From: Candidatus Latescibacterota bacterium
Lineage (GTDB): Bacteria; Latescibacterota; UBA2968; UBA8231
DNA length: 64,000 nt
Assembly (NCBI GenBank): GCA_964291625.2
Contig: OZ220089.1
Span: 832,001 to 896,000, forward strand
Reading direction: 5' to 3'
How positions within the stretch are numbered: position 1 is the stretch's first letter; every line of letters starts with the position of its first letter. Shown here in pieces: positions 28,631-33,427 of this stretch. Under the pieces are notes generated by a model. The model was given only the letters and a program-made list of their open reading frames with translations, was not told the origin of the DNA and did not search any database. Position numbers and translations under genes: made by a program.

Positions 28631-29353
28631 CTATCTCCCTCCGCGGGCGGTGCTGTCCGCGGCGCCGGCGGTCGAGTCCGCCATGGCCCCGTACTGCTCC
28701 AGCAGCAGCAGTCTCTCCTGCTCCTGCCGGCGTTTCCACCTCGCCTGCTCCAGGCGCCCCAGCTCCAGCCGCTGGGAGGCGGTGAGCAGCTCCTCGAAGC
28801 CGGTCCGGTAGCGCTCCTGGAACACCTCGTAGTCGTCAAGGGACGGTGGGCGCCCTGCCTTCTTGAGGGCGGCCACCTCCTCGCGCAGCTCCGTCAGCAG
28901 CTGCAGCCACTGCCGCCGCTGCTCCGGCGACAGGTAGAGGACGTCCGCCAGCCCCATGGGCTCCACGTGCTGTCCGGGATCGAGCCGCCGCTCGCGCTGG
29001 TAGCGGCGGGCGCGGTCGATGAGGGCCAGCTGGTCCTTGGTGAGCACCCGGTCCCGCCCCGCCCGGTAGGCGTCGATGGCCTGGCGGTAGCGCACCCGCC
29101 CCCCCCGGGGCGAGATGCGGCCCTCCTCGATCTGGAGGCGCAGCAGGTCGAGCTCCTCCTGCAGGCGCCGTCTCGGATCCCTCAGAGCCTGCCGCTGGGC
29201 GTCGCCGAGGTCGAGGGCCAGCATCAGGCGGCGGTGGAAGTCCTCCCGGAGGCTGTCGCCGGGGGCCGGAGAGGGCGGCTGTCCCGAGGCGGGACCGGCG
29301 GCGAGGAGGGAGAGCATGAGCAGGCCGGCGAGGGGCCCCGTGGGTGAGCGCAT
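28631..29353 (-). CDS. secreted helical protein, Spy/CpxP-like repeats
   Basis: Signal peptide; repeated L.L...Q....VLT..Q pattern (LDLGDAQR, VLTKDQ, LSPEQR, LLTASQ). Confidence 0.6.
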   Translation of the reverse strand: MRSPTGPLAGLLMLSLLAAGPASGQPPSPAPGDSLREDFHRRLMLALDLGDAQRQALRDPRRRLQEELDLLRLQIEEGRISPRGGRVRYRQAIDAYRAGRDRVLTKDQLALIDRARRYQRERRLDPGQHVEPMGLADVLYLSPEQRRQWLQLLTELREEVAALKKAGRPPSLDDYEVFQERYRTGFEELLTASQRLELGRLEQARWKRRQEQERLLLLEQYGAMADSTAGAADSTARGGR

Positions 29354-30221
29354 CAAACCTCGATCGCCTGGTCCAGGGCCCGCATGTACCCGACGGTCCA
29401 CGCCAGCCCCGCCGCCGAGTCGCCGGCGATGGACGGGTAGTGCTCGGGGTAGACCTGGCCCTTGTAGCCGATCTGCTTGAGGGCCCGGAAGCAGCCCGCC
29501 ATGTCGACCTCGCCGGTGCCGAAGGCGACCTCCAGGTAGCCGAGCCGCTCGAAGCGCTCGCGCAGCTCCGCCGGCACCGGTCCGGCCGGGCGGGTCTCCA
29601 CGTCGCGGGCGTGGAACATGAAGATGCGGTCCCCGTAGTCGAGGATGTTGGCCACCAGGTCGTCGCCGGCCATCTGCGACTTGCCCTGGCAGAAGGTGAC
29701 GCCGCTGTTGGCGCTGGGGGCCTCGTCGAAAAGCCGTGTCATCGACTCGTAGTTCCACAACAGGCGGTCGGGAACGTGATAGTGATGGGTGGAGATCTTC
29801 ACTCCCGCGGCCTCGGCGCGCTCGGCCAGGCCGCGGTAGTACTCGACCAGCCCCTGCCACAGGGCGGCGCGCTCGCCATCGTCGGAGAGGGGGTCGACGT
29901 GAGGTAGAAGTGCACATAGGGCACGCCCGCGGTCCCCATCGACTCCAGCAGCCGGCCGATGGACTCCAGCTCGCGCCCGCGAGTCCCGGCGTCGGCGAAG
30001 GCCTGCTGGGGCACCCGGGGCGGCGTCAGGGCCGCCAGGGTCACGCCCTCCGCGGCGTACTCTCCGGCCAGGCGGGCCAGGTCTGCCGCGGCCGGCGAGC
30101 CCTCGCCGCCGCACGCGTCGGAGACTCTCAGCACGATGTGGCGCACCGCCGTGTCGCGGCAGAAGGCCCGGTTGCGCTCGTGGTCCCCTCCGAAGGGGGC
30201 GAAAACACCTATGTCCAGCAT
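29353..30221 (-). CDS. mannonate dehydratase-like / xylose isomerase TIM-barrel protein, frameshifted near 29895
   Basis: N-half MLDIGVFAP.. in ORF 29799..30293; C-half AEAAGVKISTH, NSGVTFCQG, FHARDV, GEVDM, PEH in ORF 29353..30378. Confidence 0.72.
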
Positions 30222-30291
30222 GTGGTCCCTCTCTCTCCCGGGGCGGCATCGAAGGATAGTCACGGCGGAGGGGCGCCGCTGAAGGCCGGCC

Positions 30292-30325
30292 AAAAAAAAA
30301 CCGGCGCGCCGCTGCGACGCGCCGG
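30292..30325 (-). terminator. Rho-independent terminator
   Basis: Minus strand CCGGCGCG-loop-CGCGCCGG followed by T9. Confidence 0.85.
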
Positions 30326-30640
30326 GATACCACTTGGGCGCCGGCGAACCGCCGGCGCCGCGCCAGGTGGGCGACCACCTGGACCTACAGAAACCGTCAG
30401 GTCAGGTGGTCGCACCTCCTGCGGGTATACAACTGCTCACGGACCACCTCCTTTCGTATCGGCTGCGAGAGCCCTGTACACCGGCACCGGATTTGCCGGG
30501 GTGCCGCCGCAAGAGTGGGCCCGCGCGCTCATCCCTGGCCCTGCAGCGTTCGCCCGAAGGGCGGGATCAGGGGCCAGTTGGCATTCTGCCCGGGGCCGGC
30601 GTCCTTCGCCGGCCCTGCGTGCGCGGTGTTTGTGGCCGCG
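30292..30640 (-). ncRNA. candidate structured RNA / leader with micro-ORF
   Basis: Bounded by a sigma70-like promoter and a terminator; at least 7 hairpins; AAAGGAGGT SD before 12-aa ORF 30402-30440; no family recognised. Confidence 0.5.
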
Positions 30641-30646
30641 CCTCGC

Positions 30647-30676
30647 TAATCTACCTCGCCGCCCGAAACGAAGTCA
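30647..30676 (-). promoter_or_regulatory. sigma70-like promoter
   Basis: Minus strand TTGACT-N18-TAGATT, divergent from hemG. Confidence 0.55.
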
Positions 30677-30696
30677 AGAAGTTGTACACTTGAATC

Positions 30697-32079
30697 ATGA
30701 ATCAGAGCGCCCACACCGAGGTCGCCATCGTCGGCGGCGGTCTCTGGGGCCTGGCGGCGGCCCACTTCCTGCGCCGGCTGGCTCCGGAGAGCGAGGTCTC
30801 GGTCTTCGAGGCGGCCCCGCGGCCGGGCGGCGCCGTGCGCACCCTTCGCCGCGACGGGTTCCTCTTCGACGCCGGCCCCTCCAGCCTCCTCGACAACTCC
30901 CCGGATCTGCGCCGGCTGCTGGCCGACAGCGGCCTGGCCGGACACGTGATCGAGGCGCGGGAGGCCGCCGCCCGGAACCGCTTCATCCTCCGCGCCGGCG
31001 GCCTGCGGCGGGTCCCGGCGAGCCCCCCGGCGCTGCTGCGGTCGGACCTGCTGTCGGCCGCGGCCAAGCTGCGCGTGGCCCGCGAGCCCCTGGTGCGGCG
31101 GGCACCGGCCGACGCCGAGGAGAGCCTGGAGGAGTTCGTCCGGCGCCGCCTCGGCCGGGAGTTCGTCGACTACGGCGCCGATCCCTTCGTGGCCGGCACC
31201 TTCGCGGGATCTCCCTCGGAGCTGTGCGTGCGCTCCGCCTTCCCGGGCCTGTGGCGTCTGGAGCAGGAGCACGGCAGCCTGATCCGCGGCGCCGCCGGCC
31301 GGTCCCGGAGGCGCGGAGAGCCCGCCGGCGCCGGACCCGGCGGCGGCATCGCCAGCTTCAGCGGCGGCATGCAGACCCTGGTGGAGGGGCTGGCCGCGCC
31401 CCTCGGAGAGCGGCTGCGCACCCGCGCCCGGCTGACCTCCGTGAGCCGCGGGCCCGGCGGCTTCCGCCTCGCCTTCGAGGGGCCCGGGGCCCCCGCCCGG
31501 GTCACCGCCCGCGCCGTCCTGCTGACCCTGCCGGCCCACGCCTACCGGGAGCTGCGCCTCGACACGGACGTGCCCGAGGGCCTGGCCGGGATCCCCTATC
31601 CCCCGGTGACGGCGGTGTTCTTCGGGTACACGCGGCATCCCCTGGACCCGCCGCCGGAGGGCCTCGGCTTCCTGGTGCCGCGCGTCGAGGGGCGCCGCAT
31701 CCTGGGCACGTTCTGGAACTCCTCGGCCTTCGTGGGACGGGCGCCGGAGGGCGGCGCCGCCTTCACCACCTTCGTCGGCGGCCGCCGCCAGCCGCAGATC
31801 GCCGCCTGGGACGACGGCCGCCTCGCCGAGACCGTCCGCGGCGAGCTGCGCGAGCTGATGGGGGTGGAGCCGGCGCCGGACGTGGTCCTCATCCACCGGT
31901 GGAAGCGGGCGATCCCCCAGTACGTCGTCGGCCACCGCGCCCTCATGGCCGGGATCGACCGCCTGGAGGCCGGCTGCCCGGGCCTGTTCGTGGGCGGCAA
32001 CTTCCGCGGCGGCATCTCCATCGGCGACTGCGTCACCGGCGCCGCGGAGGCGGCGCGGCGCATCGCCGCCCGCCTGTGA
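30697..32079 (+). CDS. hemG: protoporphyrinogen oxidase (HemY-type)
   Basis: FAD motif IVGGG..GL, RPGG, DAGP, GLGFLVP, AIPQY.VGH, GISIGDCV; next to hemA. Confidence 0.93.
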   Translation: MNQSAHTEVAIVGGGLWGLAAAHFLRRLAPESEVSVFEAAPRPGGAVRTLRRDGFLFDAGPSSLLDNSPDLRRLLADSGLAGHVIEAREAAARNRFILRAGGLRRVPASPPALLRSDLLSAAAKLRVAREPLVRRAPADAEESLEEFVRRRLGREFVDYGADPFVAGTFAGSPSELCVRSAFPGLWRLEQEHGSLIRGAAGRSRRRGEPAGAGPGGGIASFSGGMQTLVEGLAAPLGERLRTRARLTSVSRGPGGFRLAFEGPGAPARVTARAVLLTLPAHAYRELRLDTDVPEGLAGIPYPPVTAVFFGYTRHPLDPPPEGLGFLVPRVEGRRILGTFWNSSAFVGRAPEGGAAFTTFVGGRRQPQIAAWDDGRLAETVRGELRELMGVEPAPDVVLIHRWKRAIPQYVVGHRALMAGIDRLEAGCPGLFVGGNFRGGISIGDCVTGAAEAARRIAARL

Positions 32080-32161
32080 CCGCTTTGCCGCCACCGGGGG
32101 CAACCGGCATCTTTTGCGGCCCCGGCCGGTGCTGACGCCGGCCGCCCTGGCTGCTGACGCC

Positions 32162-33427
32162 GTGCGCCTGCTCACCTTCGGACTCAACCACACCACCGCC
32201 CCCGTCGAGGTGCGGGAACGCCTCGCCTTCGCCGAGGGCGACCGGCCCGACTCGCTGCGCCGCCTGCGCGACGGTTACGGCCTCGCCGAGGCGGCGATCC
32301 TGTCCACCTGCAACCGCTCCGAGATCTACGCCGCCGGCAACGGCTCCGGCTTCGAGGAGGTGCGCCGCTTCCTGGCCGAGGAGCGACGGGTCGACGTGGC
32401 CGGCCTCTCTTCCTGCACCTACGAGTACCTCGACGGCGACGCCGCCGCCCACCTCTTCCGCGTGGCCTCCGGCATCGACTCCCTGGTCATCGGCGAGTCG
32501 CAGATCCTCGGCCAGGTGCGCCAGTCCCTGGAGGCCTCGCAGGCCGCGGGATCGGCGCGGCTGGTGATCAACGAGGTCTTCCAGCGGGCCCTGCGCGTCG
32601 GCAAGCGGGCCCGCGCCGAGACCGACATCGGCCGCGGCCACCTGTCGGTGAGCACCGCCGCGGTGGAGCTGGCGGGTCAGATCTTCGACGACCTGTCGTC
32701 CCACGGCGCCCTGCTGATCGGCGCCGGGGAGATGATCGAGCTCACCGCCCGCTACCTGCTGGACACCGGGCTGACCCGCTTCGTCGTCGCCAACCGCACC
32801 GCCGCCAACGCCGCGGAGCTGGCCCGCCGCTTCCAGGGCGAGGCCGTTTCCCTCGAGGCCGTGGGCGGGCGCCTCCTGGAGGCCGACATCGTCATCACCG
32901 GGACCACCGCTCCCGGCTTCGTGATCGACACCGGCACCGTGGCCGCGGCCATGGCCGGGCGGCGGGGGCGCCCCCTGTTCCTCATCGACATCGCCGTGCC
33001 CCGCGACGTCGATCCCGAAGTGCGCGGCCTCGACAACGTCTTCCTCTTCGACATCGACGACCTCGAGAGCGTCGTCTCCTCCAACCGGCGGGAGCGCGAG
33101 GGCGAGATCCGCCGCGTGCAGGCCATCGTCGACGAGGAGCTGGGCGGCTTCCTCCACTGGTTCGGCTCCCTCGGCTCGGGCGACGTGATCCGCGCCCTCC
33201 AGCAGCACAGCTCGGAACTGCGGTCGACGGAGCTCCAGCGCTGGTCGGCGCGGCTCGGCCACCTGTCTGCGGAGGACCGCGCCCTCGTGGAGCGCATACT
33301 GCGGGACTACACCAACAAGCTGCTGCACCAGCCGCTGGTGCAGATCCGCGAGCTCTCGGCCGGGCCCGACGGCCACCTGCACCTGGAGACGGTGCGGCGC
33401 CTCTTCGACCTCGACGAGACCTCGTGA
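32162..33427 (+). CDS. hemA: glutamyl-tRNA reductase
   Basis: GLNHTTAPVEVRE, STCNRSE, GESQILGQV, IGAGEM, DIAVPRDVD. Confidence 0.96.
   Translation: MRLLTFGLNHTTAPVEVRERLAFAEGDRPDSLRRLRDGYGLAEAAILSTCNRSEIYAAGNGSGFEEVRRFLAEERRVDVAGLSSCTYEYLDGDAAAHLFRVASGIDSLVIGESQILGQVRQSLEASQAAGSARLVINEVFQRALRVGKRARAETDIGRGHLSVSTAAVELAGQIFDDLSSHGALLIGAGEMIELTARYLLDTGLTRFVVANRTAANAAELARRFQGEAVSLEAVGGRLLEADIVITGTTAPGFVIDTGTVAAAMAGRRGRPLFLIDIAVPRDVDPEVRGLDNVFLFDIDDLESVVSSNRREREGEIRRVQAIVDEELGGFLHWFGSLGSGDVIRALQQHSSELRSTELQRWSARLGHLSAEDRALVERILRDYTNKLLHQPLVQIRELSAGPDGHLHLETVRRLFDLDETS

Follow-up and report, generated by a model that had tools for sequence, protein, structure and literature searches.

A stand-alone, conserved and expressed RNA gene with a Shine–Dalgarno-led mini-ORF, most likely a distant relative of Ms_IGR-5 and CC2171

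The DNA considered here is a window of 64,000 nucleotides (nt) from contig OZ220089.1 of assembly GCA_964291625.2 (positions 832,001 to 896,000 of the forward strand); positions below count from its first letter. Its minus strand carries, at 30292-30641, a stand-alone, conserved and expressed RNA gene that is neither the leader of a neighbouring operon nor, by score, a member of an Rfam family. The most fitting description is that of a novel, extended form of the small translated RNAs typified by Ms_IGR-5 (RF02471) of Actinomycetota and CC2171 (RF01867) of Alphaproteobacteria, and judging by sequence the RNA is most likely a distant relative of both. The best explanation for its conserved 3′ 165 nt is a tiny self-regulating mRNA, in which a 15-nt Shine–Dalgarno (SD) sequence precedes an open reading frame (ORF) of 12 codons. 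The initial annotation of this DNA had proposed either an unannotated small RNA (sRNA) or an attenuating leader of the genes downstream. The first half of that proposal holds, given the RNA's own promoter and terminator, its presence in 57 of the 63 other genomes of its family, covariation and RNA contigs; the second does not, as the downstream gene varies among relatives. Both the mini-ORF and a sub-threshold likeness to the two Rfam families had been overlooked.

The transcription unit and its conservation

A consensus scan of 29800-31200 returned TTGACT-N18-TAGATT at 30677-30648 as the sole promoter site (mean 0.0 in 50 shuffles), with a predicted transcription start at ~30641 on the minus strand, and over the same interval a single terminator-like site was found, the stem 30325-30301 followed by T9. 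This promoter, the strong terminator with T9 at 30325-30292 and a near-continuous run of hairpins between them had all been pointed out in the initial annotation, and each is confirmed: the terminator has an 11-bp stem, every hairpin listed is present in the sequence, and the 366-nt stretch from promoter to terminator has a minimum free energy of −206.8 kcal/mol against −178.2 +/- 5.0 in 100 dinucleotide shuffles (z −5.68; 0 of the 100 folded equally well). The unit is composed as follows.

-35 30677-30672 and -10 30653-30648, minus strand: sigma-70-like promoter, TTGACT, 18-nt spacer, TAGATT (consensus scan)
30292..30641, minus strand: predicted transcript of ~350 nt (promoter and terminator bounds, fold z-score, RNA contigs)
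30456..30641, minus strand: structured, lineage-specific 5′ domain of ~185 nt (alignment A2)
30642-30621, minus strand: 5′-domain hairpin
30615-30593, minus strand: 5′-domain hairpin GGGCCGGCG-AAGGA-CGCCGGCCC
30577-30535, minus strand: 5′-domain nested stems, 30577-30572/30540-30535 enclosing 30564-30551
30510-30478, minus strand: 5′-domain stem
30363..30418, minus strand: long hairpin (alignment A1)
30337..30359, minus strand: variable 10-bp hairpin (sequence and relatives)
30292..30325, minus strand: intrinsic terminator, 11-bp stem 30325-30301, GCA loop, U9 (terminator scan)

Relatives keep this RNA. R1, a covariance model for the 3′ 165 nt that rests on 22 sequences, matches 69 of 151 sampled genomes of the phylum, including the 57 already mentioned from the own family, Gemmatimonadaceae, in which the primary locus scores 69-164 bits. 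Outside the family there are only weak matches (6 of 19 genomes in family f4, 2 of 30 in f2, 2 of 13 in f10 and 1 of 5 in f8), and none in the remaining families. BLASTN with the region reaches 9 of the 9 other species of the genus plus several other genera (26 of 61 genomes at E <= 0.01, own genome counted). Sequence identity across the genus is 73-97%, and one Gemmatimonadaceae record (L075) has a 3′ domain identical to that of the window; the bacterium itself is one of soil and marine settings. The promoter is kept as well: 24 of 30 distinct related loci have TTGAC-N16-19-TAnnnT ahead of the SD core, at a distance of 128-198 nt (237 nt in a single case). Most of the genomes positive with R1 contain a single match, and seven, all of the family (G017, G021, G030, G032, G121, G143 and G144), have an additional weaker one of 35-51 bits, which could be a paralogue or a terminator look-alike.

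The helices also covary. Two alignments were examined, A1 for the 3′ domain (22 sequences) and A2 for the 5′ domain (16 sequences), with structures derived from the very sequences on which they were tested, which favours them. In A1 97.8% of the cells are paired, compared with 34-45% when the partners are slid, and 11 of 29 pairs have changed on both sides, with none of 500 shuffles reaching the observed values. These changes are located in the base of the long hairpin (columns 54-63/88-97: 98.2% paired, 4 of 10 pairs changed on both sides) and in the terminator (97.3% paired, 6 of 10 pairs), the sequence of the latter being highly conserved. A2 comprises 34 pairs with 80.5% of cells paired, against 33-44% with slid partners; 19 of them have changed on both sides, and no shuffle out of 500 came as high on four of five measures, one doing so on the fifth. 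The 10-bp hairpin 30359-30337 changes its sequence between genera and is missing at four loci of the genus (L006-L009).

Twenty sequencing runs carry the stretch or part of it, 6 of which are recorded as RNA, and four of these were mapped. Run X16 yields a single contig, 30416-30629, at depth 90, and X17, from the same study, a single contig, 30423-30629, at depth 25, both with zero depth on either flank; X18, from a second study, yields a contig 30302-30470 from a more distant relative, again with zero depth on the flanks. Jointly the three tile 30302-30629 and connect the 5′ domain with the SD and ORF. The X18 contig ends at 30302, within the terminator stem, and those of X16 and X17 end 12 nt short of the predicted start; a loose end of the X17 contig resembles library adapter, so that the fragment presumably ended ~5 nt beyond 30629. 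Uncovered parts in these runs do not mean absence. The metatranscriptomes thus place RNA on the unit and not on its flanks, although contigs cannot reveal RNA ends or strand. Run X15 was uninformative as evidence of expression, the flanking genes being covered at similar depth.

By score the RNA belongs to no known family: at gathering score Rfam has no match anywhere in the window, and in E-value mode its matches there are sub-threshold only. ARAGORN found no tRNA or tmRNA in the window. The initial annotation was therefore right that hallmarks of tmRNA and RNase P RNA are lacking here, and both RNAs sit elsewhere in the own genome (C1:991921 and C1:3337866, respectively); 6S RNA (RF00013) gave no match in the whole own genome.

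On the plus strand a flavin amine-oxidase/HemY-type gene begins at 30697, followed by the gene of glutamyl-tRNA reductase (hemA); these two span 30697-33427. hemY and/or hemA stand divergent beside the RNA in four genera (g1, g13, g17 and g12), and this neighbourhood is absent at the group-II loci of the family and at 36 actinobacterial loci. Downstream of the RNA, the adjacent minus-strand gene is UxuA-like (30221-29353). Compared with the close relative L003, where it is a single frame, the window is one base short near ~29901 (CTACCTC-ACGTCG vs CTACCTCAACGTCG), and this loss splits the gene into 29802-30221 and 29353-29880; it is either a pseudogene or the product of a one-base assembly error.

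Shine–Dalgarno copies, mini-ORF and anti-SD mimics

The 3′ domain holds three SD-like segments and two segments that mimic the 3′ tail of 16S rRNA, all arranged around the mini-ORF.

30441..30455, minus strand: SD1, GAAAGGAGGUGGUCC, invariant core (complement of own 16S 3′ end)
30402..30440, minus strand: mini-ORF of 12 codons, GTG AGC AGT TGT ATA CCC GCA GGA GGT GCG ACC ACC TGA, peptide MSSCIPAGGATT
30414..30419, minus strand: SD2, GGAGGU within the ORF, 9 nt before the stop codon
30411-30404, minus strand: anti-SD mimic 1, GACCACCU, overlapping the last codons and the stop
30381-30372, minus strand: SD3, third SD-like copy CAGGUGGUCG, partner of mimic 1 in the long hairpin
30371-30363, minus strand: anti-SD mimic 2, CCCACCUGG

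The 16S rRNA of the own genome has the 3′ end GGATCACCTCCTTTCT, and because this ends in GGAUCACCUCCUUUCU, SD1 is a 15-nt complement with one G-U pair. Its core, AAGGAGGTGGT[CT], occurs in 31 distinct relatives, the motif having served to select them. The initial annotation correctly stated that no credible long ORF lies in the unit; it passed over the conserved 12-codon ORF at 30440-30402, whose GTG start stands 5 nt past the GGAGGU of SD1. This ORF is intact in all 31 distinct Gemmatimonadota-type sequences (L183, which lacks the core pattern, was left uncounted). The start is TTG in 16, GTG in 11 and ATG in 4, placed 5, 6 or 10 nt after GGAGGU; the stop is TGA in 26, TAA in 3 and TAG in 2; and the length is 9, 10, 11, 12 or 13 codons, so insertions and deletions come in threes. 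The mini-ORF is further supported by the actinobacterial type described below, as an in-frame NUG follows SD1 by 5-11 nt in 31 of 31 and 69 of 71 distinct sequences of the two types.

SD2 ends 8-9 nt before the stop codon in 31 of 31 Gemmatimonadota-type sequences, with 6 nt to the last sense codon; in the actinobacterial type the spacing to the stop is 10 nt (69 of 69 sequences). Its reading frame differs between the groups, all three being used. Together with the stop, the last codons of the ORF (GACCACCUGA) resemble the 16S tail, and their pairing with CAGGUGGUCG makes the long hairpin. In constrained folds of the 3′ domain the minimum is −95.2 kcal/mol, while SD1 on mimic 2 gives −90.9, SD1 on mimic 1 together with SD3 on mimic 2 −88.2, and SD1 left free −86.6. 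The pairings of SD1 with either mimic therefore lie 4-9 kcal/mol above the minimum free energy, and several conformers of the domain are predicted to be within reach.

Kinship with Ms_IGR-5 and CC2171

Ms_IGR-5 is an actinobacterial sRNA, reportedly first found in Mycobacterium smegmatis, and CC2171 is CCNA_R0051 of Caulobacter, containing the small ORF CCNA_03965. Ms_IGR-5 is listed as validated by RNA-seq in Streptomyces lividans (PMC8079986) and, for S. avermitilis, among the transcription units of sRNAs (PMC8780764); in M. abscessus and M. smegmatis the MS_IGR-5 homologues belong to the sRNAs for which ribosome-protected reads are significant (PMC4974804). For Caulobacter, two non-coding RNAs predicted earlier are stated to be translated in fact (PMC4117421); its Dataset S1 places the sRNA CCNA_R0051 (2404309-2404501, plus strand) between CC_2171 and CC_2172 and within it the ORF CCNA_03965 (2404323-2404409), 'mapped by ribosome profiling'. 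A text search of the literature found neither the core nucleotide strings nor the peptide strings, and in the collection searched no function is stated for the two families and no link between them is claimed; papers outside it could differ.

The likeness to Ms_IGR-5 lies in the order of parts. In both, an SD (GGAGGUGGUCC in Ms_IGR-5) is followed by a short ORF, of 12-15 codons and starting mostly with Met-Ser in Ms_IGR-5, then by GAGGUG 8-10 nt before the stop (9 nt in Ms_IGR-5) and by a complement of the SD, which in Ms_IGR-5 is of the CCACCUGG type and comes after a small hairpin that contains the stop. Both are single-copy, free-standing genes, and model searches in the two directions give weak hits that are largely, if not throughout, specific. 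The differences are equally plain. Ms_IGR-5 is a transcript of ~180 nt that starts ~12 nt before its SD, whereas the window RNA has an extra 5′ domain of 185 nt and a conserved promoter ~190 nt ahead of SD1; the domain is missing from the actinobacterial relatives, whose model begins ~12 nt before the SD. The window RNA ends in a canonical U-tract terminator, its peptide is unrelated, it comes from another phylum, and its mimic lies within the last codons of the ORF and not behind a stop hairpin.

To CC2171 the likeness is of a similar kind: it has GAAAGGAGGUGAUCC, 6 nt, AUG or GUG with a Ser codon, and an ORF, and in some members a CCCACCUCC mimic is combined with GGAGGU at 6-7 nt from the stop. 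CC2171 further has a helix that joins the beginning of the ORF to a segment just ahead of its intrinsic terminator. Unlike the window RNA, CC2171 has longer ORFs (14-25 codons) and no 5′ domain. Candidates for its helix are AUACC 30428-30424 with GGUAU 30331-30327 in the window and AGUAC with GUACU in group II; their register is not constant in the alignment, and the group of L047, L049 and L154 has no such helix.

An exact-pattern scan over one genome per species (the SD core and two short anchors) gave at least 119 loci. Among the matches listed, 75 are of a second type, mostly in Acidimicrobiales/Actinomycetota records, 12 are of the window type and 32 are other loci, which are mostly ordinary gene starts. 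A few of the latter, again among the matches listed, resemble family members (L042 from Acidobacteria, L088 and L099 from Planctomycetota, L108 from Trueperaceae, L111 from Terriglobia, and L144). One actinobacterial-type locus, L040, exceeds the RF02471 cut-off with 48.8 bits; of 12 further loci compared with that model in E-value mode 9 score 28-45 bits, and L108 and L042 reach 30.1 and 29.1 bits. The actinobacterial type has an in-frame ATG, GTG, TTG or CTG 6-11 nt past the SD, opening a frame of 13-15 codons, in 69 of 71 distinct sequences, the remaining 2 having an in-frame ATC, and in 59 of 59 a stop codon stands 9 nt past CTGGAGGTG (TAG 43, TGA 13, TAA 3). Canonical high-scoring Ms_IGR-5 peptides read MSDLWTCEVAAR, MSDRRTREVAAS, MYEYRTREVAAG and similar. 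Among 151 sampled Actinomycetota genomes 44 match RF02471 at E <= 1e-3, and 19 of these exceed the cut-off; if four genomes flagged as unpublished are set aside, the figures become 40 of 147, with 18 above the cut-off. No universal neighbour was seen in the gene context of 36 actinobacterial loci, only lineage-specific ones (acyl-CoA dehydrogenase, alpha/beta hydrolase, TMP-TENI). Two near-identical copies of this type, L046 and L096, lie on two contigs of one metagenome-assembled genome (G313), each beside genes of an acyl-CoA dehydrogenase and an alpha/beta hydrolase; they are either a duplication or a redundant assembly.

Of 151 Pseudomonadota genomes, 18 match RF01867 at E <= 1e-3, one of them over the cut-off. 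All but one (L208) of 19 loci fetched from positive genomes begin with GAAAGGAGGUGAUCC or a near variant, mostly followed by 6 nt and then AUG or GUG (UUG in one case) and a Ser codon, with frames of 14-25 codons; three (L202, L204 and L206) combine a GGAGGU-like motif 6-7 nt before the stop with a CACCUCC-type mimic before the terminator. The group-II copy L026 of the window's own family matches RF01867 at 31.2 bits, and over 4 whole group-II Gemmatimonadaceae genomes that model finds only the locus of this RNA each time (27-33 bits, E 7e-5 to 1.4e-3). Conversely, R1 run over 5 whole actinobacterial genomes gives 5 hits in 4 of them, all Ms_IGR-5-type loci (E 7.7e-4 to 0.036), and none in G310. 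With R2, a model of the actinobacterial type (119 positions), the sole hit in G024 is the RNA locus (E 0.0035), the top hit in G025 is weak (E 0.54), and the best hit in the window is 30383-30459 (16.1 bits, E 0.015); the alphaproteobacterial locus L201 scores 22.5 bits and L108 26.7 bits. L201 has the SD GGUGAUCC with the internal partner GGGAUCGCC where the other two groups have GGUGGUCC with GGACCACC, so that both strands of the proposed SD-to-mimic helix have changed.

Altogether, common descent of the Gemmatimonadota RNA, Ms_IGR-5 and CC2171 appears likely, if far from assured, the alternative being convergence on one design. The top RF01867 match of the own genome (18.5 bits, E 0.25) is a different unit, C1:3486250-3486520 of G000, with a perfect 13-nt SD GAAAGGAGGTGAT, a TTG 6 nt further on and an anti-SD-like stretch CTCACCTCTCC; it may be another RNA of the same kind.

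A possible mode of action and the alternatives

We consider that the RNA is probably a translated, self-sequestering molecule resembling a mini-mRNA, with a lineage-specific 5′ domain of 185 nt and with Ms_IGR-5 and CC2171 as relatives. Translation of the mini-ORF in its own organism, the switch and any cellular role are inferred. In the proposed scheme, SD1 could pair with 15 nt of the 16S rRNA 3′ tail ahead of the GUG and the 12-codon ORF, and free 30S subunits would compete with the internal mimics for it. Translation of the mini-ORF up to the stop would melt the hairpin of mimic 1, and SD2 might then hold the ribosome, its A site occupied by the stop codon, in a geometry like that of initiation. 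As an anti-SD look-alike, the end of the ORF with its stop could also pair back onto SD1 or onto the third SD copy. The changed fold of the RNA would report or titrate ribosome engagement, probably via stability or partner binding, and the 5′ domain, as an addition of the lineage, may gate access to SD1.

Such an arrangement recalls two known kinds of RNA. Spot 42/SpfP and SgrS/SgrT are sRNAs that also encode very small proteins, and like the RNA described here they are short, free-standing, structured and translated; in them, however, the peptide and the pairing region are separate modules, while here the ORF, the SDs and the mimics are intertwined, with a peptide that lacks conservation. The small mRNA hok is inhibited by folding back, its start region being closed by a 3′-proximal segment of the same RNA as proposed here, but its product is a membrane toxin and not a peptide of 12 hydrophilic residues.

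A number of observations weigh against this reading as a whole. The window RNA itself reaches only 15.0 bits with RF02471 (cut-off 45; full model span 30296-30459) and ranks second, at E 0.95, when that model is run over the whole own genome. With RF01867 it reaches 15.5 bits (cut-off 75, which the group-II relatives with their 27-33 bits also fail to attain), and it is not among the own-genome hits of that model at E <= 1. R2 found nothing in G014 or in G000, where 150 of ~6,500 candidates were scored, and its hit in G009 is false, lying inside a coding region. R1 meets the CC2171 locus in one of 5 alphaproteobacterial genomes (E 0.115), the other hits being terminators; those in G279 are gene-end terminators. 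Moreover, R1 assigns 13-16 bits to 3 of 21 unrelated SD loci, selected by pattern. The own genome has many long SDs: uninterrupted pairing to the 16S tail over 15 nt or more (wobble allowed) occurs at 5 non-rRNA sites, SD1 included, and the four others, along with 14 perfect 12-mers, temper any view of it as exceptional. As to the switch, covariation cannot pick a conformer because the SD and anti-SD segments never vary. In the Gemmatimonadota type the best internal duplex of SD1 does not clearly surpass shuffles (median z −1.06, 3 of 20 sequences below −2); the signal is clear in the actinobacterial type (median z −2.27, 47 of 68 below −2) and not in the alphaproteobacterial type (4 of 15). 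A proposed actinobacterial pseudoknot H1/H3 is compatible with the sequences (85% paired), but its covariation does not exceed that of shuffles. The groups do not share a conserved peptide sequence, and the RNA data are assembled contigs, from which the level can be read no better than ends or strand.

The translated reading has to be set against that of a purely non-coding sRNA acting in trans, in which GACCACCU and CCCACCUGG would pair with the SDs of target mRNAs, the SD copies would mask these seeds and the mini-ORF would be incidental. The stand-alone promoter and terminator agree with such a role, as do the filing of RF02471 and RF01867 as sRNA genes in Rfam, the status of Ms_IGR-5 as a Streptomyces sRNA transcription unit, and the SD2 motif kept at the RNA level over three reading frames. 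We nevertheless regard it as unlikely: variation of the start is confined to NUG codons with the proper spacing, insertions and deletions come in threes, the stop position always holds one of the three stops and never UGG, a ribosome-profiling signal has been published for both look-alike families, and the anti-SD-like stretches sit in stems and not in loops.

Alternatively, the unit might be an ordinary small mRNA whose 12-residue peptide is the active product, its structure only tuning synthesis. A conserved ORF with a near-ideal start region, a Met-Ser N-terminus common to the three groups, and actinobacterial and some alphaproteobacterial peptides that are alike (..T-x-E-V-A-x-R/G, ..GTAWEVRL) would fit. 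Yet the peptide differs even within one family (AGGATT, LRRSTT, GRLIT and MESTGRSTT), its residues 4-12 coincide with nucleotides that form helices, and no conserved partner gene lies nearby. The frame in which GGAGGU is read varies, so that it is the RNA on which selection seems to act, and for these reasons an effector peptide is quite unlikely.

The reading as a long 5′ leader or attenuator, acting on the UxuA-like, sugar-acid and pectate-lyase genes via the U9 terminator, can draw on the UxuA-like start 70 nt downstream on the same strand and on the resemblance of a leader peptide followed by a terminator to classical attenuators. It is contradicted by the changes in synteny, as there is no constant linkage to a downstream gene: L001-L005 and their duplicates alone have the UxuA-like gene behind the RNA, and other genes stand downstream in L006-L009 of the same genus and in other genera. 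Because neighbours differ while the promoter is kept, the RNA travels with its own promoter and terminator and not with the downstream operon. Nor was an anti-terminator alternative to the terminator stem found, which together with the high conservation of the terminator sequence makes a leader very improbable. That the hairpins are a functionless chance product of a GC-rich spacer, in a GC-rich genome in which even shuffles fold at −178 kcal/mol, is refuted to all practical purposes by the conservation of the RNA, seen in its identity across the genus, covariation, fold z-score and the RNA contigs on the unit.

Going beyond the translated, self-sequestering RNA proposed here, Ms_IGR-5, CC2171, the Gemmatimonadota RNA and the look-alikes in Acidobacteriota, Planctomycetota, Deinococcota and Latescibacterota records might form one ancient class of 'ribosome baits', with a 13-16-nt complement of the 16S tail, a mini-ORF, an SD2 that holds the terminating ribosome, and anti-SD mimics. 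Such RNAs would capture or gauge free 30S or 70S particles and so tune SD-dependent versus SD-independent (leaderless) translation; this wider proposal is doubtful, and we offer it tentatively.

For the organism, the finding adds to the genome a previously unannotated and probably abundant RNA gene beside the hem genes. If the kinship is true, two orphan Rfam sRNA families from unrelated phyla would join with a Gemmatimonadota branch in one widespread class, whose common denominator would be a built-in contact with the anti-SD tail of the ribosome and not a peptide or a target gene. This would give a testable handle on RNAs that have been catalogued for more than 10 years without a function, and the annotation of both families would shift from 'non-coding' to translated.

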